Source: Desulfobacterales bacterium
Lineage (GTDB): Bacteria > Desulfobacterota > Desulfobacteria > Desulfobacterales > UBA5852
Length of the DNA: 64,000 bases
Direction: 5' to 3'
NCBI GenBank assembly: GCA_963674755.2
Contig: CAXXVS010000002.1
Coordinates: 992,001 to 1,056,000, forward strand
The notes under the pieces were generated by a model. It ran no database searches and was not told the origin of the DNA. It saw only the letters and a list, made by a program, of their open reading frames with translations. The stretch's first letter is position 1. Each line of letters starts with the position of its first letter. The translations under genes and the position numbers were made by a program. Below are positions 1 to 41,017 of the stretch, in pieces.

Positions 1-31
1 TGAAGCCCACTATTACTATGCGCATATCACC

Positions 32-391
32 ATGAGCAAAAAATCAGCTGATTTAGTACTGATTCAGAAGGGCGCCCAGCATGCACTTGAACAGCTCAAG
101 GGAATCGACGCCGGGATGTTTCGGAAAGGGCTTGATCAACTGGGATTGCCACGATCAAGCAAGGTAAGGTTGTCGCTGACGCGTATTTTCAGGGAATCCG
201 ATAATATTGAGGAGATGCTGACCGTTGTGGTGCAAGAAGCCGGCATTATCGCCAATTCTACAGACTGGCGACAACTCAAACAAGTCAAAGAGAACAGTGA
301 CGTCGCCTATCTTAACATTATTGTCGAATTACTCTGGAAGGCCGTGGCCAAAGAACGTTTGATAAAAACCCTGGAAGATATCCACAATTAA
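32..391 (+). CDS. hypothetical protein (119 aa, helical)
   Basis: ATG-started ORF converging on the 825-aa gene; no recognisable motif. Confidence 0.6.
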   Translation: MSKKSADLVLIQKGAQHALEQLKGIDAGMFRKGLDQLGLPRSSKVRLSLTRIFRESDNIEEMLTVVVQEAGIIANSTDWRQLKQVKENSDVAYLNIIVELLWKAVAKERLIKTLEDIHN

Positions 392-411: not shown

Positions 412-2889
412 TCAAGGCCTGACAGCGCGAAACCATCCACAATCTTTGGAATCCTGTTTTGTAATGGATGGAGCCGATGCGGCCAGCGGCTTGACGACAT
501 CTACCAGAATGATCCATCCTCCCGAATACCGTTTAAAGCTGTCCGACGACCAATACCAATTGCTTACAGCCCCCGGGAAAGGGTTGGGACCACTGAAGAG
601 GATCGCGAGCTCTTTAGCCGTGGGTAATCGCCAGTCGGAATAACCGCCTGTCTTCATGGATTTCACGTATTGCTTTGCTTCATCATAGGTCATGCACTTG
701 CCGGTCGATAACCGTGAATCAAGCAATGTCCAAGTCAATCCGGTTTTTGAATCGAAAACCGTACTTGGCTTCTTAATCGAAAACCGTCCTTGTTTTTTGC
801 TGAAGAGTTGTTGCAGCCGGTCCACTTCCAATTGACTTTCCCGGCGTGCCAGTTGATTCCTGGTTTTAGCAAGTTCAGCTTGTATGAGCGGAACGGCTGG
901 GCTGTTAGGTGAATTTTGCAAGAATTGTTCAAAGACCGAGCGGGCTTTTTCGGGATCGGCGTCTTTGCCGCCAGCTTTGGCGATGAGCGCATCCAATACG
1001 CTTTTATTTTGAAGGTTGATTTGATACACATCTCGTTTTTCTTTTAGATTTAGAGCATACCGCGAGTCACGGTAGATATTGATGTAGCGGTTGCTCAATC
1101 GGATGCATTGGTTCCAGTCTTCACTTTTTTCACACTGTGCCAATGCCCCTTCGACATCCCGATAATAAGGTGCTTCAATATTGCGCAGGATATTTCGGAC
1201 TTGGGCGACATGCCGACCATCAGGATGCTGCTGTAAATAGGCCGCCCCAGCGTTAGCGACTTCCTCAGGCTTATTTTTCGATATTGCCGAAATATATTGA
1301 TAGTCGCGTTCATCCATCAAACCGGGAAGCTCGGCGGCCTTGTTGCGGATTTCGTCGGCCCAAGCAGAATTCCCATGGTTTGCCAGAAATTTATCGTATA
1401 ACGTCCGGATATCTTCATACCGCTCTTCGGCATACAGTTTTTCAGCGCTTTGACTGACGGATTTGAAATCACGTTGAGCGATGCGTCTCTGAAGGGACTC
1501 AATATGATTGGCTGCGCGCGCCCGGAGTTCTTTGTCGTCGGAATCGTCCAAATAGGTCTTGAAGATGCGAATTTGAGCCTCAAGCGAAGGCTGTTCCTCC
1601 GCTTTGTGAACGGTTTCGACATACGCTTCCTCAAGGCGCTGTTGCTTGAAATAGAAGTACCAAAAGATAGACCCGCTAACCAAAAAAACGGTCAAGGTGA
1701 CGAATGCCACACGCGCATAGCGTTTGAGATTGAGTTTCTTTTTGGGCTGTTCAACTTTCCAGTTTTGGCTCTGGCAGAACTCCAGAATATGCTGACGGGC
1801 TTCATCCGGAAGGGTGCCAAAGCTAACCGCCTTACGAAGCAGGAAGTGGAAGTATTCTATCTTGAGAACATTTTTGCTTATGGCAAGGCTTATATCTTTA
1901 CTCAGGTTTTTCAGCAGTGAACGTGCGCGACTGAGGTCGTAGGCGTAGCGGCTTTCATCGGATTTGAAGATCGAAATGCATTGCCCTGCCAGAACACTGC
2001 TTGCTGTTACGAAAGCGTCTTTTTGGGCGATTTTACGAACCTCTTTTTCTTTTTCAACAGCTTTATTTTGTAATGCCTCAAGTGGAGATCCAGGGAAAAG
2101 GCCCAAAAAACTGTATAGTGAATCCTGCTCCACGATTTTCAAATTTTCATTGATGAATTGCTCAACGGTGCTGTCAATGCTGTATGCATGCTCGGCCTCG
2201 GATAGGGATCCTTTTTTAATGGGGCAACGCACCCGACGCAAAATTTCACCTTGATCTATAGCGTAAATCTCGGCCAGACTCGAAATTTCTCTTTCGGACA
2301 TGAACCCCTTCCGAATCTGGATATTGATGTACGCTTCGAGTTCGGCAGATCGCTCATCCAAGAGGTTCTTTAATTTTTCATGAACCGCTTCCGGTGTTGT
2401 CTGAAATTGGGACGCAATTTTTTCGAGCGTTTTTTCATCAGGTTTCCCATCAATCAGAAGGTGATTCAAATAGGTTTCAAGTTCATGGCCATGTTTTTTC
2501 TGCCAAAGCTCAGCTCTTCTTTGAATGATTTGAGGTTTTACCTTATGGAATTCCGCTAAGCGTGCGATTTCTTGCTCACTAATGGTGCCTTTTGAGCCTA
2601 ATAAATACACATGACGATCAATGGCTTTGAATTTTGTTTCCAGCTTTTTCTTGATCAACGCGATAGCGTTGCGTGCTTCTTTTTCCCGCAGTTCGGGATC
2701 CGCCATCGTTTTCCGAATTTCGGTCACGAGACTGATGAATTGGCGTGCTTGGGTACCTTTAGTAGGATGATTCCTCAGACGGCTCCATTCGGCCTGTTTT
2801 CGCTTGATAGCCGATTCAATGACATCAGGATCGGATTCGGGGGGATTGATTTTCAATTCCAGCAGTTGATAGAAATTTAGCCTGCTCAT
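412..2889 (-). CDS. membrane protein: degenerate J-domain(s) + TerB-like repeats + single TM + helical repeats + C-terminal DUF1566/Lcl_C domain
   Basis: N-term NFYQLLEL..IESAIKRKQAEW..HPTKG..ARQF..DPELR resembles a J-domain; second J-like unit LYSFLGL..FKSDESRYAYD; TM at aa ~392-414; C-term VFDSKTGLTW..MTYDEAKQY..GGYSDWRLPTAKEL..WYWSS..FRAVR is the DUF1566 pattern. Confidence 0.8.
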   Translation of the reverse strand: MSRLNFYQLLELKINPPESDPDVIESAIKRKQAEWSRLRNHPTKGTQARQFISLVTEIRKTMADPELREKEARNAIALIKKKLETKFKAIDRHVYLLGSKGTISEQEIARLAEFHKVKPQIIQRRAELWQKKHGHELETYLNHLLIDGKPDEKTLEKIASQFQTTPEAVHEKLKNLLDERSAELEAYINIQIRKGFMSEREISSLAEIYAIDQGEILRRVRCPIKKGSLSEAEHAYSIDSTVEQFINENLKIVEQDSLYSFLGLFPGSPLEALQNKAVEKEKEVRKIAQKDAFVTASSVLAGQCISIFKSDESRYAYDLSRARSLLKNLSKDISLAISKNVLKIEYFHFLLRKAVSFGTLPDEARQHILEFCQSQNWKVEQPKKKLNLKRYARVAFVTLTVFLVSGSIFWYFYFKQQRLEEAYVETVHKAEEQPSLEAQIRIFKTYLDDSDDKELRARAANHIESLQRRIAQRDFKSVSQSAEKLYAEERYEDIRTLYDKFLANHGNSAWADEIRNKAAELPGLMDERDYQYISAISKNKPEEVANAGAAYLQQHPDGRHVAQVRNILRNIEAPYYRDVEGALAQCEKSEDWNQCIRLSNRYINIYRDSRYALNLKEKRDVYQINLQNKSVLDALIAKAGGKDADPEKARSVFEQFLQNSPNSPAVPLIQAELAKTRNQLARRESQLEVDRLQQLFSKKQGRFSIKKPSTVFDSKTGLTWTLLDSRLSTGKCMTYDEAKQYVKSMKTGGYSDWRLPTAKELAILFSGPNPFPGAVSNWYWSSDSFKRYSGGWIILVDVVKPLAASAPSITKQDSKDCGWFRAVRP

Positions 2890-3218
2890 AAAACCCTCAT
2901 ATTCAAATAGGACCTTTAGCTGAAAAAAAAGAAATCAAAAATGCACCAAATATGCCAATATGAGCATTTTAGAAAAAAACAGTCTGGTTTTCAATACTAT
3001 ACACGCAATTGTTATTTTTGAACATAGCCGTTTCGGATCGTCATGGGTCTTCCGGACAACTCGTTTCCGCATGGCCGTACAATAGAGGGGGGGGGGCTCG
3101 ACGCGATAAGATCGATCAGTAAAGCCAGTCAATGATATGGGAGAATTCGTAGCGAAGGTACCGGTCAACAGATAAGAAGCTATATTCAAATGACACGCGT
3201 CTATGTCAAGGAGGTTAT

Positions 3219-3250
3219 GCCCCTAACAGCCGATGAGCGGCTTGTGGGGT
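3219..3250. terminator. GC hairpin downstream of the Hsp70 gene (possible terminator or stabiliser)
   Basis: GCCCC..AGCCG-ATGAG-CGGCT..GGGGT inverted repeat; no clear U-tract on the - strand. Confidence 0.35.
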
Positions 3251-3280
3251 TATCCTCTCTTTGAGAAAACGGGAGGGTGG

Positions 3281-4945
3281 CTAGTGAACCACTAGATGTT
3301 GAGCCCTCTCAATGGCTTCTTCCAGTTCTTTACCCTGAATGACAGAGCTCGTTTCGATTTTAGCCACAACTTGACGGTTCTCTGTCGCTTCCATTGCTGT
3401 AATTTGTAATCGCCCTTCACGGTTGAGGTTGAAATTGATTTCAACCGGAGAATCCTCGGGAAGACCTTCGGGTAAATCCAACACCGCCGTACCGATTTCG
3501 ATAGAGTGTTCAACGGAAACGACTTTTTCGTTGGTTTCGTTTTCCATAATACGGATGAGGACACGTTCCTGGTTGGATTCCGGGGTGTAAAAGGTGCGCT
3601 TGGTTTCGACCGGAACCGCCGTGTTCTTCAAAATAAGGTTGAAAACGCCCTCCTTATTGTTGGGGCGACGTGCCACAACGCCGAAGCTTTTGCTGGCAAC
3701 ATCTCTGATGCGCATCGTTGATTGCCGTACTGCGGAAAGGGTCACCCCGGTTTCTTCGGACATCTGCTTGGCGACTTCTTCCATGATTTGCTTGGGTGTG
3801 GTTTCAATGATGTTCTCTTCGTGCTCGATATTGCGATTTGTTTTTTGCGCAATTCGACGGATCAGGCCATCGTTTAGCGACAATTTCCAGCCATAGATGG
3901 CAGCGCCCTTGGCGACGGCTTCATCCGGGTCGAACATGCGCGGCTCTATGCTGAATTCCTGGCGAATGCGCTCGGGAATCTGGGGCATGCGAGTCGATCC
4001 TCCGACCATGATAATTTCGTCAAAATGCTCATAGCCTTTGTTTTTCGCTTCTTTGAGCATTTCATGTGTGAGGGCTATGGTGCGCTCTAGGAGGTCTTCG
4101 GAAATTTCAAGAAACTTATCCCGGCTTAATTCAACCTTTACACGATCACCGCCATGGGTAATGGAGATAGGGGTTTTATCCCTCTGTGAGAGGATTTTCT
4201 TTGACTTTTCCGATGAGAGCTGCAAGTCCTGCCATGTGTCAGGGTCTTCGAGAATATCTTCTTCCGATTGGGTTTGGCGCTGAAATTCCTGAACAAGGTA
4301 AGCCACAATGCGGTCATCCCAGTCTTTGCCGCCCAGATTATGGTCCCCCCCGGTACAAATGACGTCAATCGAATTTTCCTGGATATCAATCATCGTTATG
4401 TCGAATGTACCGCCACCGAGGTCGTATACCAGAACGACGCGGTTTTCCGTTTCCTGGACCGTGCCGTAAGCGATAGCCGCCGCGGTGGGTTCATTGATAA
4501 TCTGGCGGACATTAAAGCCGGCTATTTCACCTGCCTTGCGGGTAGCCTCGCGCTCATTGATACCAAAATAAGCCGGGCAGGTGATAACCACGTCCTGGAT
4601 TTTTTCACCGATTGTCTGCTCGGCATCCTGCGCGACTTTCCGAAGGATGTAGCTGGAGATTTCCTCCGGACGGTAGTTTTTGCCGTCGTATTCATAGAGG
4701 AAATTGGCTTCTCCCATGGAGCGTTTAATGAAGCTGACCACTTCATTCGGATAGAGTTTGGCGCTCTCTTTCGCTACATCGCCGACAACAATCTCGCTAC
4801 CGTCGAAGAAAACGACCGAGGGGGTGATACGTTGATTTTCCGCATTGGGAATGATGACCGGTTTACCGTATTCATCAACGTAGGCAATAGAAGAGTAGGT
4901 GGTTCCAAGGTCAATACCAAAAATTTTGTTGATTGGATCACTCAT
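3281..4945 (-). CDS. Hsp70-family protein (specialised DnaK paralogue lacking the helical lid)
   Basis: GIDLGTTYS, TCPAYF, INEPTAAA, VYDLGGGTFD, GGDHNLGGKDWD, MVGGSTRMP motifs; only 554 aa. Confidence 0.95.
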   Translation of the reverse strand: MSDPINKIFGIDLGTTYSSIAYVDEYGKPVIIPNAENQRITPSVVFFDGSEIVVGDVAKESAKLYPNEVVSFIKRSMGEANFLYEYDGKNYRPEEISSYILRKVAQDAEQTIGEKIQDVVITCPAYFGINEREATRKAGEIAGFNVRQIINEPTAAAIAYGTVQETENRVVLVYDLGGGTFDITMIDIQENSIDVICTGGDHNLGGKDWDDRIVAYLVQEFQRQTQSEEDILEDPDTWQDLQLSSEKSKKILSQRDKTPISITHGGDRVKVELSRDKFLEISEDLLERTIALTHEMLKEAKNKGYEHFDEIIMVGGSTRMPQIPERIRQEFSIEPRMFDPDEAVAKGAAIYGWKLSLNDGLIRRIAQKTNRNIEHEENIIETTPKQIMEEVAKQMSEETGVTLSAVRQSTMRIRDVASKSFGVVARRPNNKEGVFNLILKNTAVPVETKRTFYTPESNQERVLIRIMENETNEKVVSVEHSIEIGTAVLDLPEGLPEDSPVEINFNLNREGRLQITAMEATENRQVVAKIETSSVIQGKELEEAIERAQHLVVH

Positions 4946-5957
4946 CGATATTCCTCGTATCTACTGATTCGGTCTCATCTGCATAAACATAGACAGCAAC
5001 CATTTCCTGGCGAATGACTTTATCTTCCCACTCATAACCGGGGCGTAGACTCTTGGCAATGGTCTTATCCTTGGCGCTATCATCAGTGGAGATTTTTTTA
5101 ATCGCACGCTGTTTGGCGGGGTTGAAAATACCATCTTTGCTGGAATATGGTCTGACCCCTTGCCAATAAAAAATATCCTCCAGATCGGAAGGGATCGCCT
5201 CGAGATAACGAAACAGCTTTACGGGATCCCTTTGGGACACATCCAGAGATCGGAAATAGGTCAGCCATTTGCGGATATCATCGGCCACTTTGACCACATC
5301 AAGAACAATCGAAAGGATATGTTTTTTAACGATGTCCTGCTTATACTCCTGCAATTCCTGATGAAGCTTGTCGATGATTTTATCCTTATGGGCATCATAT
5401 TTCAGTTTGCCAATAAATTCATCTTTGAGTTCGCCCAACTGACGATTGATCAAATCCATCGCATGCTGCAAAGTCTCCGTTTCCGTTTCACCAATCACCG
5501 ATTCCACATCCTCACTATGGAATCCTTCTCCCTGAAGGTCTGGGGCCGCCTGATCTTCTTGTGCGATTTCACCGTCATTCCATATTGGGTCAAGCGCCTC
5601 ATTGGTAGCAGGTTCCGGGAGGTCATCGCCCGGGGCTACCGCATCGGCTGTAATTTCATCGGAGGGCTCATCGGCCACCTTGCCTTCGTCGTGATCGGGT
5701 GTTACATCAACCGGCAGGCTGGGCTCTTCGGTCTCGAAATTGTCATCGTCGGCAAACGGATCCGCTTTTAGGCCGACCTCAGCCAGTTCGTCTTCGTCGA
5801 ACAACGACGGGAGACCGACGCCTTTATCATCTTCCGATTTTGCCGCAGCATCATCGTTTTTCGTCTCAGCGGGGTCTGTTTCCACCGCTTCCGCTCTCGC
5901 GGATAGATCGTCCAACGGTATGCCGACTTCGTATTCTTCGTTATCCTGACCCATCAT
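4938..5957 (-). CDS. grpE: GrpE-family nucleotide exchange factor with long acidic N-terminal extension
   Basis: coiled coil then FNPAKQRAIKK..TIAKSLRPGYEWEDKVIRQEMVAVY GrpE beta-domain; overlaps the Hsp70 start by 8 nt; GAGG before ATG at 5957/5954. Confidence 0.85.
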   Translation of the reverse strand: MMGQDNEEYEVGIPLDDLSARAEAVETDPAETKNDDAAAKSEDDKGVGLPSLFDEDELAEVGLKADPFADDDNFETEEPSLPVDVTPDHDEGKVADEPSDEITADAVAPGDDLPEPATNEALDPIWNDGEIAQEDQAAPDLQGEGFHSEDVESVIGETETETLQHAMDLINRQLGELKDEFIGKLKYDAHKDKIIDKLHQELQEYKQDIVKKHILSIVLDVVKVADDIRKWLTYFRSLDVSQRDPVKLFRYLEAIPSDLEDIFYWQGVRPYSSKDGIFNPAKQRAIKKISTDDSAKDKTIAKSLRPGYEWEDKVIRQEMVAVYVYADETESVDTRNIDE

Positions 5958-39118: not shown

Positions 39119-41017
39119 GATGGCCCCGTAAAAAGTCGTAATAGTCTATTCACCTGAATTTTTTAGTAAAACGCCCGATTACTTCTTGTGTATTTCTTCT
39201 TGCTATGCTACAGGATAGCTAACAATAACAGAGGCTTATCCTGGAGATCGCATGCTTCGCATCAAAGACCACAAACAGCAACATCTCTTCGACCCGTGGG
39301 CCTATTTGAGCCCCAAACGGCGGCGGATGCTCGAAGACGGCTGGCCCGGGTTGTTCCGCCAGCATCTGCTCGGAGAACTTCCCGTCGATCTGTTAAAATC
39401 CTTCTTCACTGAAGCCATAGGGCGGCCCACCAAGGAACTGCATACCCTGCTGGGAGTGATGCTTTTCCAGCAAACCATGGATTTAAACGATGTCGAGGCC
39501 GTCGAGCAGCTGGCCTACAACCTCCAGTGGCATTACGCCCTGGACATTACCGAAGAAAGCGACGAGGCCAAATACGTCAGCGAAAAGACCCTGTGGTCGA
39601 CCCGCCAGCTGATGGCCGAAAATGGCATTGACGGGGTCATGTTCGAAAAGCTCACCGACAAATTGGCCAAAGTGTTCGGTGTAGATCCTTCCAACCAGCG
39701 CATCGACTCGGTACACATCCGCTCCAACATGCGCCGGCTGGGCCGTATTGCCATTTTCAGCCGCACGATCGCCAAGTTCCTGGTCAATCTCAAACGCCAC
39801 CACCGAGAGCTGTTCGATACGATCGCTTCTGATGTGATTGATCGTTACTGGGGTGAGAAGGCCCTATCCGCCTTTTCTCTGGTTAAACCCACGGAATCGG
39901 AAAAGACGTTAAAACGGGTCAGCAATGATCTGTTCGATCTGATCGAGGGCTTCAAGGACCAAACGGCGGTGGCTTTCATGCACAGCTACAAGCTCATGCA
40001 GCGGGTGCTCGCCGATCAATGCCATGTCGAGACCGATGCCGCCGGTGCCCCCTAAGTAACGATAAAGAAGCCGGCCGAGATCCCCTCCGACTCATTGCAA
40101 AACCCTTCGGACCCGGAGGCCACCTACAGCGGCCACAAGGGCCAGGGCTATCAGGTCCAGATCATGGAGAGCTTCAGCCGCAGTGAAGAGGCCAATGAAA
40201 AAGAGCAGGCGCTTAACCTGATTACCCATGTCGAAGTTCAACCCGCCTGCGAGAGCGATGCGGAGGCCGTGGTGCCGGCCATCGCCGATACCAAGATCCG
40301 GGGTGTGGGGCCCGATCAGTTGGTCGCCGACACTTTGTACGGCAGTGACAATAACCACCAGACGGCCCAAGTGGCCGATGTCGACCTTGTCGCCCCGACC
40401 CAGAAGGGCAATGAGTCCAAGCCGCTCACGGCGTTTAGCTTTAATGACAAGGGCTATGTCGAGACCTGTCCGGCGGGTCACGTTCCCGAGCAGGTGAAGC
40501 ACAAGAAGAAAACCGATCGTTACAGCGCGGCCTTCGATTCCACGCTTTGCCAGGGATGTCCGCATGCGGGTCATTGCCCGGTCAAGCCTGGGAAAAAGAA
40601 AAACTATCTGCGCTACAGCGGAAAGCAATATCGCCTATCGGTGCGTCGCAAGGCCGAGAAAAGCGAGGCTTTCATTGACACCTATCGCTGGCGGGCCGGT
40701 GTGGAGGCCACCATGAGCGAATATGATCGGCGCACCGGGGTCAAAAAGCTACGGGTTCGGGGCATGCCGGCGGTGCGCTTCTGTGCCAAAATGAAGGCCA
40801 CCGGGCTCAATCTGCTACGGGCGGCCCGGGTTCGCAGGGCCAGGATGAAGGCCGCAGAGGGTAATCCGGGCCTTGATCACCGTATTACGACTGCTGTTTA
40901 TCGTGTCAAAGAACGTTTACAGGCCGCTCTGGTGGAATTTGCCTTCGCTTGGACAAATTCGTCGGGAAGATATCCAGAAAGCTACAAATTGGCCGCCTGA
41001 TTTTTTACGCGGCCATC
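39119..41017 (+). mobile_element. IS1182-like insertion sequence (1899 bp)
   Basis: IRL GATGGCCCCGTAAAAAGTC (39119-39137), IRR GATTTTTTACGCGGCCATC (40999-41017); GC-rich against AT-rich flanks; flanks AAATTT/AAAGTT. Confidence 0.9.
39252..41000 (+). pseudogene. DDE transposase interrupted by one in-frame TAA (40053-40055)
   Basis: the 267-aa and 301-aa ORFs are in the same frame; DUF772-like GRPT..QWHYAL, QRIDS, SDPEATY..KG.GY, ADTLYG, YRWRAGVEAT. Confidence 0.88.

Follow-up and report, generated by a model that had tools for sequence, protein, structure and literature searches.

The window, a stretch of 64,000 nucleotides from a Desulfobacterales genome, carries three co-oriented genes on the minus strand which encode a GrpE-like protein, an Hsp70 and an 825-aa membrane protein with J-like domains (Table 1; the three are called the triad in the following). 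The grpE-like gene overlaps the start of the Hsp70 gene, as described in the first-pass annotation (the overlap is 8 nt), and the Hsp70 gene is followed after 391 bp by the gene for the 825-aa protein (J-gene). The locus neighbours are housekeeping genes. Promoter and terminator scans of the locus gave nothing above chance, and the reported lack of a CIRCE element was borne out, with no match at up to 3 mismatches within the window. A promoter-like site lies in the 391-bp gap ahead of the J-gene; its score is not above chance. Expression data came from one metatranscriptome (X1, share 0.17), in which low-depth contigs, possibly DNA carry-over and silent on co-transcription, covered grpE, hsp70, the J-gene and the EF-G-like neighbour.

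Table 1 Features of the triad locus, with positions in the window.
Feature	Position	Strand	Remarks
grpE-like gene	4938..5957	-	339 aa; PF01025 E 1e-16 on aa 157-322
Hsp70 gene	3281..4945	-	554 aa; PF00012 E 5e-111; lidless; clade of the 'first Hsp70' of GAP1-N2 systems
Hsp70 nucleotide-binding domain	3890..4945	-	aa 1-352
Clade-specific ~55-aa helical insertion, then remodelled linker (MRIRDV for VLLLDV)	3716..3889	-	
Substrate-binding beta sandwich, one helix and short hydrophobic tail	3284..3715	-	helical lid absent
J-like membrane protein gene	412..2889	-	825 aa; J1, helical repeats, J2, repeat, TM, TPR-like, Lcl_C (DUF1566)
J-fold 1 (J1)	2662..2889	-	aa 1-76; NHPTKG replaces HPD (HPT at 2761-2769)
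Three ~47-aa three-helix (HTH-like) repeats	2218..2643	-	aa 83-224
J-fold 2 (J2)	1915..2175	-	aa 239-325; no HP motif
Predicted transmembrane (TM) helix	1648..1716	-	aa 392-414; sole hydrophobic segment of the protein at aa 392-410
TPR/BamD-like helical spacer	820..1647	-	aa 415-690; predicted periplasmic; common to DUF4388-headed proteins
Lcl_C/DUF1566 C-type-lectin-like domain	415..783	-	aa ~703-825
Convergent gene, 3' part	1..391	+	~226 aa in total, start before window; no known family

The Hsp70 scored 378 bits against the NCBIfam DnaK model, below the equivalog cut-off of 648 bits. Elsewhere the genome encodes two canonical DnaKs (one with grpE), ~31-33% identical to the triad Hsp70, and a DnaJ; the set is private and separate from the canonical chaperones, as had been supposed. 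In an alignment of 67 Hsp70s, the equivalents of D8, T11, K70, E171, T199, D201, P143 and R151 of DnaK were retained throughout, and those of K414, N415, P419, F426 and I438 were kept or conservatively replaced, the peptide-pocket residues being retained. The residues of DnaK which contact the J-domain, R167 and Q378 (PMC8215388), were replaced: the former by Q in 66/67 (Q148 in the window protein), the latter by Y or F in 67/67 (Y351). The nucleotide-binding domain has neither the lobe-I insert nor the GrpE-signature loop, and the structural model resembles ATP-docked DnaK (TM 0.79-0.80). The GrpE-like protein has an acidic N-terminal part (32.5% D/E in aa 1-160), followed by a divergent GrpE domain. 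Its gene was present in 27 of the 32 loci having upstream DNA and lost in some lineages (5/32), which speaks against an obligatory GrpE.

The 825-aa protein was modelled with AlphaFold (pLDDT 89.8). In comparisons with J-domains, aa 1-97 of the model gave a Z of 7.3 (rmsd 7.8, 87 residues aligned), aa 239-330 a Z of 7.0 (rmsd 4.5, 83 aligned) and aa 255-325 a Z of 6.3 (rmsd 2.1, 69 aligned). These values are middling alone, but J-domains recur in the top rows for either region, and the modelled protein has a J-domain fold at two places. The domain architecture proposed earlier, J-like domains on one side of a single TM helix and DUF1566 on the other, is confirmed, with the J-folds seen by the model and not by Pfam: PF00226 missed both, and Pfam on 30 N-terminal modules gave no consistent match. 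A Foldseek search with the N-terminal model had no match at E<=0.001 (a J-PKAc chimera ranked 45), and a search of the ESM Atlas with aa 1-385 retrieved unnamed clusters only. The J1 motif NHPTKG was found in 84 of 96 aligned rows, HPD in none of the 93 ungapped rows, and the HP of J1 stands ~5 residues later than in DnaJ when the alignment is read by eye. The number of HTH-like repeats between J1 and J2 differs between relatives.

Binding of the J-folds to the Hsp70 was predicted by complex modelling with custom alignments. The score was 0.61 (0.61/0.64/0.53) versus 0.26 for the best of three controls; the pass mark was reached by 116/157 solved but only 2/215 mismatched pairs. Contacts agreed to at least 91% and the partner pLDDT was 81. 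The chief predicted contact is aa 32-56 of J1, with minor contacts by J2, and the Hsp70 surface predicted to meet it comprises aa 67-85 and 207-242. J1 is thus predicted to dock with the end of helix II, the NHPTK loop and helix III over lobes IB/IIB at the nucleotide cleft and not at the DnaJ site, and any stimulation of the partner ATPase by the J-fold would proceed from a contact site that differs from the stimulatory one of DnaJ. Conservation was somewhat higher in the interface than on average (0.82 vs 0.77 and 0.73 vs 0.62). Since solo Hsp70 paralogs with no adjacent J-gene also retain the interface segments, these are not diagnostic. In textbooks the HPD site is the universal J-Hsp70 binding site; contrary to this rule, a J-fold would bind Hsp70 elsewhere should the predicted interface prove right.

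The triad shares with DnaK-DnaJ-GrpE all three folds, intact ATPase and allosteric residues and, in the model, the ATP-docked architecture. Unlike that system it has no lid, an altered linker, no CIRCE found in the window and, since HPD is missing, R167 and Q378 are replaced and the predicted interface lies off the DnaJ site, no support for a normal J-triggered cycle. The triad is not a miniature DnaK cycle. Of the 'complete private Hsp70 cycle' put forward in the first-pass annotation, the private set was upheld; the obligatory GrpE and the J-triggered cycle were not. None of the three outcomes named there as refuting the proposal was encountered.

The flanks of the TM helix carry six K/R ahead and two behind, and the N-terminus is predicted to be inside by the positive-inside count. 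In place of the 'trans-envelope' arrangement suggested at first, a single pass through the inner membrane is likely and, because only one membrane is predicted to be crossed, the DUF1566 domain would be periplasmic rather than surface-exposed. This domain matches PF07603 at aa 710-789 (E 7e-15) and shares this family and a C-type-lectin-like fold with Lcl of Legionella; here, it follows a TPR-like spacer in a protein predicted to sit in the inner membrane, and there is no collagen region. The C-terminal domain of Legionella Lcl trimerises and binds sulfated glycans, and the generic role of PF07603-type domains is described as not clear (PMC11162425). The gene end was also considered as a target of a diversity-generating retroelement and rejected: a genome search with the last 389 nt gave no match other than the query itself (next E 0.17), and no template repeat was found.

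The same TM-TPR-Lcl_C ectodomain was found behind a PATAN (DUF4388) head, with or without a receiver domain, in 54 of 251 Desulfobacterales genomes; no description of this sister family was found in literature searches. The window protein itself has no PATAN domain. PATAN binds PilB1/PilC in Synechocystis (bioRxiv 10.1101/2021.06.11.447907). Counted among related genomes, the two heads were nearly mutually exclusive, with one genome having both versus 12.9 expected; a more sensitive search found the PATAN-headed gene, as a second full ectodomain gene, in 2/60 triad genomes. At family level the overlap was 1 versus 5.7 expected (nominal P 0.005, kin not being independent). Since the TM-TPR-DUF1566 part also carries a PATAN head and the two sets are nearly exclusive, these findings point to one receptor with interchangeable outputs; the extracytoplasmic module behaves like a receptor part, as it had been regarded. 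The ectodomain tree is unrooted and leaves the direction of the head swap unfixed. In situ replacement of a DUF4388-type gene by the triad was rejected for lack of shared synteny: the 20 DUF4388-type loci fetched had no gene neighbourhood in common with the triad and no recurrent pilus neighbour.

Although the first-pass annotation had recognised no named system, the triad belongs with the Hsp70/GrpE/DnaJ theme of the GAP1-N2-type DO-GTPase systems, which Kaur, Burroughs, Iyer and Aravind predicted in 2020 by computation only and proposed as a conflict system (PMC7159879). Experimental tests of these systems were not found in literature searches, nor was the triad arrangement found in print; Figure 1-source data 1 of the 2020 paper may list such neighbourhoods. 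A Desulfobacterales genome (G407) has a full GAP1-N2 system (locus L048), whose Hsp70 is, like that of L071, 62% identical to the window Hsp70 and whose J-FNIII protein is homologous to aa 1-385 of the 825-aa protein (E 1e-56 to 1e-52). Triad and system Hsp70s are set apart together by a branch with SH-aLRT 99, and the gene order grpE-hsp70-(hsp70)-J and the double-J N-terminal module are shared. Fusions of the module, which speak for its partnership with the Hsp70, were found as Hsp70-doubleJ-TIR (P0176) and doubleJ-FNIII-DO-GTPase (P0217). As judged by these sequence comparisons, the triad descends alongside the Hsp70-GrpE-DnaJ arm of the GAP1-N2 systems and is a GTPase-free relative of it. 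It differs in having no DO-GTPase, GAP1, second Hsp70-vWA, zinc ribbons or FNIII, the last two being replaced in its J-protein by the TM helix and the TPR-Lcl_C ectodomain. No DO-GTPase was found in the genome by PF19993 or adjoining triad loci, and a Desulfobacterales GTPase query matched 2/60 triad genomes, where it hit full systems apart from the triad. Likewise, there was no PF20013 match for a GAP1-N2 protein in the genome (G000, 97% complete) and no GAP1 label beside triad loci. A connection between the FNIII component and mycobacterial SaeABC was dropped, as no supporting paper was found.

The GAP1-N2 systems are mobile and mostly Gram-positive, whereas the triad is vertically stable in Desulfobacterales. 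Among the 251 genomes, the J-like gene occurs in 60 and the triad Hsp70 in 61; no genome has the J-gene without the Hsp70, the two genes adjoin in 54 of the 60, and the J-gene comes after the Hsp70 gene in 34 of 35 loci. The J/TM gene is thus conserved beside this Hsp70 clade, across 21 families. The triad is single-copy and mostly all-or-none per family (7/7 in family f2), and the Hsp70 tree groups host families. Every domain is under purifying selection: dN/dS of Lcl_C is ~0.15 (versus L001), and the Hsp70s share 94-95% identity in comparisons that give 86-88% for the EF-G-like neighbour. Outside the order, 0/387 was found, a count valid for close relatives only, as the J-FNIII gene known from L035 escaped the profile. 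A single plasmid match spans J1 only. GAP1-N2 systems are biased towards multicellular hosts. Most hosts of the triad are uncultured; among those with a name are a MAG of Desulfonema limicola, a filamentous species, and Desulfatibacillum alkenivorans, which grows as single rods.

We consider it somewhat probable that the 825-aa protein serves in the inner membrane as a receptor or landmark, with a dedicated lidless Hsp70 ATPase as its output; on the cytoplasmic side its double J-fold is predicted to hold this Hsp70 in place. The periplasmic TPR-Lcl_C part would bind a ligand or structure of the envelope, for which a glycan and a protein complex are candidates, and would cluster; the single TM helix offers no obvious signal route except clustering. 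Clustering would concentrate the Hsp70 at a membrane site and bias its nucleotide state. Because proteobacterial DnaK has a ~23-aa insert in the predicted docking segment, the pair would be insulated from the DnaKs of the cell. Since it has no lid, the Hsp70 would bind and release rapidly, and its dedicated clients would be one or few in number; the private GrpE, though dispensable, would speed resetting. The weakest step concerns the client, which may be a machine of the inner membrane and, if the alternative PATAN head is taken as a guide, possibly the polarity apparatus or the type IV pilus.

Alternatively, the lectin-like periplasmic domain may detect an invader protein, with the Hsp70 relaying the signal or being the response. 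The proposal for the related GAP1-N2 system fits such an anti-phage or conflict sensor, as do fusions of the double-J module elsewhere to TIR, EAD11, FGS, ankyrin and ricin-B domains, and DUF1566 recurs in papers on diversity-generating retroelements. However, the defence role of the GAP1-N2 system is itself only proposed, PADLOC families were unmatched except for one 47-aa match (E 0.002), and phage records and one viral-contig scan contained no match to the triad. Since inheritance is at family level, selection is purifying and the locus has no effector among its neighbours, we regard this explanation as unlikely; the earlier suggestion of a defence system keeps support at the level of ancestry.

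Quite unlikely, too, is a chaperone dedicated to membrane proteins with no signalling, in which the 825-aa protein holds the client in the membrane or periplasm while the part of the client that lies in the cytoplasm is folded or pulled by the Hsp70, as in HscC-DjlB/DjlC of E. coli (PMC8215388). The size of 550-580 aa, the lobe-I deletion, the missing GrpE-signature loop and the membrane-bound J partner are as in HscC (a likeness of features, the Hsp70 tree having taken in no HscC sequence); the peptide pocket is retained, and the TPR/BamD-like spacer suggests protein binding. However, HscC keeps its lid and has no GrpE partner, whereas the triad Hsp70 is lidless with a private GrpE usually adjacent; HPD-type triggering appears absent and the docking residues are lost, the partner has a large extracytoplasmic part, and the use of the same ectodomain under a PATAN/receiver head, without any Hsp70, in 54 other genomes would stay unexplained. 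That the genes are loose relics of a captured GAP1-N2 operon fragment, neighbours which no longer cooperate, is very improbable: the 391-bp gap with its promoter-like site, one decayed locus (L032/L114) and the existence of solo Hsp70 paralogs and solo double-J genes would fit, but the near-perfect co-occurrence and adjacency, the strong purifying selection and the passing complex prediction speak against it.

The receptor reading can be extended, as a possible but rather doubtful proposal, to Desulfobacterales having one envelope receptor with either a PATAN domain or an Hsp70 machine as output, in which the HPD-less J-fold clamps the Hsp70 nucleotide cleft and a periplasmic cue or landmark steers the lidless Hsp70, which acts on the pilus or polarity apparatus as a switch driven by ATP. 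If true, J-fold and Hsp70 would be coupled in a new way, Hsp70 would serve as a transmembrane signalling output, and the GAP1-N2 systems would have in the triad their simplest testable core. These GTPase-Hsp70 systems are widespread, and the triad reduces them to Hsp70, GrpE and double-J module; the PATAN head swap is the first concrete hint at a role of such a module outside defence. The triad is present in the cultured strain Desulfatibacillum alkenivorans DSM 16219, which makes the core interaction directly assayable. A search of the ESM Atlas with the convergent ~226-aa gene gave nothing usable; the gene was found in 23/60 triad genomes and in 0/191 others and is possibly an accessory of the triad.

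The first-pass annotation had described three co-oriented genes, the grpE-like one overlapping the Hsp70 gene, as a private, membrane-tethered triad, and this order was indeed found at 412-5957, with all genes on the minus strand. The surroundings are housekeeping genes (EF-G-like, dxs, ispA and xseAB, named by reading the translations). Since the host genome (G000, 97% complete) encodes two canonical dnaK elsewhere, one with a canonical grpE directly before it, and also a dnaJ, the triad is an extra set, as the annotation had wanted checked. A search for CIRCE found none, in agreement with its claim.

Coordinates of the triad genes and of other features; plain numbers are window positions, G000 is the host genome and L-numbers are other loci
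Feature	Location	Strand	Remarks
grpE-like gene	4938-5957	minus	8-nt overlap with the Hsp70 gene
Hsp70 gene	3281-4945	minus	
825-aa protein gene	412-2889	minus	
Convergent ~226-aa gene	1-391 (G000:C2:991711-992391)	plus	no known family; conserved LPRSS-R motif
DUF4388-cNMP and small GTPase genes	G000:C2:984995-986805		6-7 kb past triad 3' end, also in close relatives; GTPase presumably MglA-like
Soluble DUF4388 genes	L028:4732-6084; L079:4730-6061; L114:4667-6004		directly upstream of grpE at some of the triad loci
Tandem Hsp70-like genes	G000:C3:1796198-1800879		very divergent; about 630 and 950 aa
Solo paralogs of the triad Hsp70 clade	L110:3478-12412; L113:7107-13745		51-55% identical; from two family-f2 genomes; each in a copy of the same two-component cluster (hybrid kinase, Hsp70, 154-160-aa unknown, receiver-PAS-kinase)
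Polysaccharide-synthesis-like cluster	20600-48500		judged from ORF text only
Its low-GC core	27-38.4 kb		27-36% GC
Split transposase-like element in this cluster	39252-41000		judged from ORF text only

Scanning named genomes yielded 37 Hsp70 loci, 35 of them deltaproteobacterial/Desulfobacterales. The J-gene followed the Hsp70 gene in 34 of 35 loci and GrpE preceded it in 27 of the 32 having upstream DNA; among five genomes of GrpE-lacking lineages, four had canonical GrpE only and one had a second divergent copy elsewhere. Among 251 Desulfobacterales genomes, the N-terminal double-J module was present in 60 and the triad Hsp70 clade in 61. All 60 J-gene genomes contained both genes, adjacent in 54, which bears out the expected neighbourhood, and on separate contigs of draft genomes in six. 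Presence was mostly all-or-none per family and the Hsp70 tree clustered by host family; outside the order, the query, insensitive to distant forms, matched 0/387 genomes of the phylum. The convergent gene occurred in 23/251 genomes, every one triad-bearing, was adjacent to the triad in about 20 (by coordinates) and is duplicated in some loci (e.g. L067).

On balance, we lean towards an inner-membrane receptor or landmark that would recruit the dedicated lidless Hsp70 via a repurposed J-fold; the recruited Hsp70 would then grip or switch a specific membrane machine in an ATP-dependent manner, and GrpE would be optional.

The triad is genuine and represents a new form of a predicted type of system. 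According to the part of Kaur et al. 2020 (PMC7159879) available to us, about 14% of GAP1-N2 DO-GTPase systems include HSP70, GrpE and a DnaJ-FNIII protein, and Pfam identifies locus L035 as a system of this type. The 825-aa protein matches J-zinc-ribbon-FNIII proteins over its residues 1-385 (E 1e-56 to 1e-52). In an Hsp70 tree of 55 of the 83 collected sequences (28, mostly near-copies and one frameshifted, were left out), a branch with SH-aLRT 99 separated triad, system "first" and TIR-fusion Hsp70s from DnaK and the systems' second Hsp70, the method being quick and carrying a long-branch warning. Unlike the systems, G000 contains neither DO-GTPase nor GAP1, both of which were searched for; the GTPase query matched 2/60 triad genomes, both at separate systems. 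One Desulfobacterales genome, G407, carries triad and full system together, and the system's first Hsp70 is 62% identical to the window Hsp70. Complete or near-complete GAP1-N2-type systems in triad-carrying Desulfobacterales genomes were seen at L048 (G407:C499) and L115 (G565:C20), the latter with a J-like/FNIII/DO-GTPase fusion. By our own classification, 40 metagenome loci comprised 25 triad-type, nine system-type and six solo J-modules. The arrangement was not found described in the literature searched; a mention of it may exist in the Kaur 2020 source data or in the Barriot 2020 survey.

The double-J module family is large (1223 representatives, of which the best 150 were inspected), and its partners among 48 scanned were FNIII, FGS, ankyrin, PEGA-pentapeptide, cytochrome c, ricin-B, Ig-like, EAD11, DO-GTPase and Hsp70 plus TIR. 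That the triad is a defence sensor is unlikely in our judgement. One polypeptide, P0176, joins J1, an Hsp70 NBD, a full double-J module and a TIR domain. Loci L075, L077 and L080 hold solo genes that combine double-J with ankyrin repeats; their fetched flanks contain no Hsp70 (L080 starts at the gene).

The Hsp70 model (pLDDT 84.5) resembles ATP-docked DnaK (TM 0.79-0.80; reference features from the consulted part of PMC8215388). Eight checked NBD catalytic and allosteric positions are invariant in 67/67 triad Hsp70s. The peptide pocket has been retained. There is no lid, the linker is altered and follows a ~55-aa helical insert, the GrpE-signature loop has been deleted, and of the two cleft salt bridges one has disappeared. 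The HPD-Asp-binding residues are replaced (R167 by Q in 66/67, Q378 by Y/F in 67/67), both being kept in 9/10 second Hsp70s of the systems; E. coli numbers were transferred via the DnaK of G000. That the triad works as an HscC-like membrane chaperone appears rather improbable. Further solo Hsp70 copies were noted at L109, L111 and L112.

The model of the N-terminal module (pLDDT 89.8) contains two J-folds and HTH-like repeats, with middling Z values; the J1 motif is NHPTKG in 84/96 rows and never HPD. Binding of Hsp70 by this J-fold is predicted: for the modelled complex of Hsp70 and aa 1-385 the score was 0.61 (three controls reached at most 0.26; contact agreement at least 91%, partner pLDDT 81), and the pass mark was reached by 116/157 solved and 2/215 mismatched pairs, counts that are rough since own alignments were used. 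Predicted contacts join J1 aa 32-56 to Hsp70 aa 67-85 and 207-242 in lobes IB/IIB. Since none of the DnaJ-site positions (148, 351, linker, 445) is among the listed contacts, unnamed residues being uncertain and still possible, the pass looks unlike recall of the DnaK-J structure. Interface conservation exceeds the average only modestly, and the Hsp70 segments are also kept in solo paralogs; both points count against the complex. The variant is notable for this predicted non-canonical interface and for the interchangeability of the heads.

Searching with aa 416-825 revealed another protein family, in which the same TM-TPR-Lcl_C part follows a DUF4388 (PATAN) domain and no J-module is present (L117-L127, L129-L136; most of proteins P0240-P0289), not found described in the literature searched; one member has a Pfam receiver domain in front. 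It occurs in 54/251 Desulfobacterales genomes (E<=1e-60) and is nearly mutually exclusive with the triad (one shared genome, 12.9 expected); with a more sensitive search, 2/60 triad genomes proved to have a second full ectodomain gene. At 19 loci these genes stand alone, with neither Hsp70 nor shared synteny beside them. The unrooted ectodomain tree requires two head changes and gives no direction. In the portion of the literature at hand, PATAN has the pilus ATPase PilB1 and also PilC as binding partners in Synechocystis, and Lcl_C of Legionella Lcl is a trimer binding sulfated glycans, the general role of the domain being unclear. For the membrane receptor that we favour, we infer a ligand, clustering and a client, which by analogy may be a pilus/polarity apparatus.

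Every domain is under purifying selection compared with L001, the locus of a relative (dN 0.01/dS 0.63 for Hsp70, 0.09/0.59 for Lcl_C, 0.11/0.67 for TPR), and that the triad is a relic is very improbable. In three further relatives, Hsp70 is 94-95% and the EF-G-like neighbour 86-88% identical. One lineage has long-form triads with a 955-980-aa J-protein (L056, L057, L058, L062, L063, L093), followed by genes that, on the appearance of their sequence alone, encode a sensor kinase and a response regulator.
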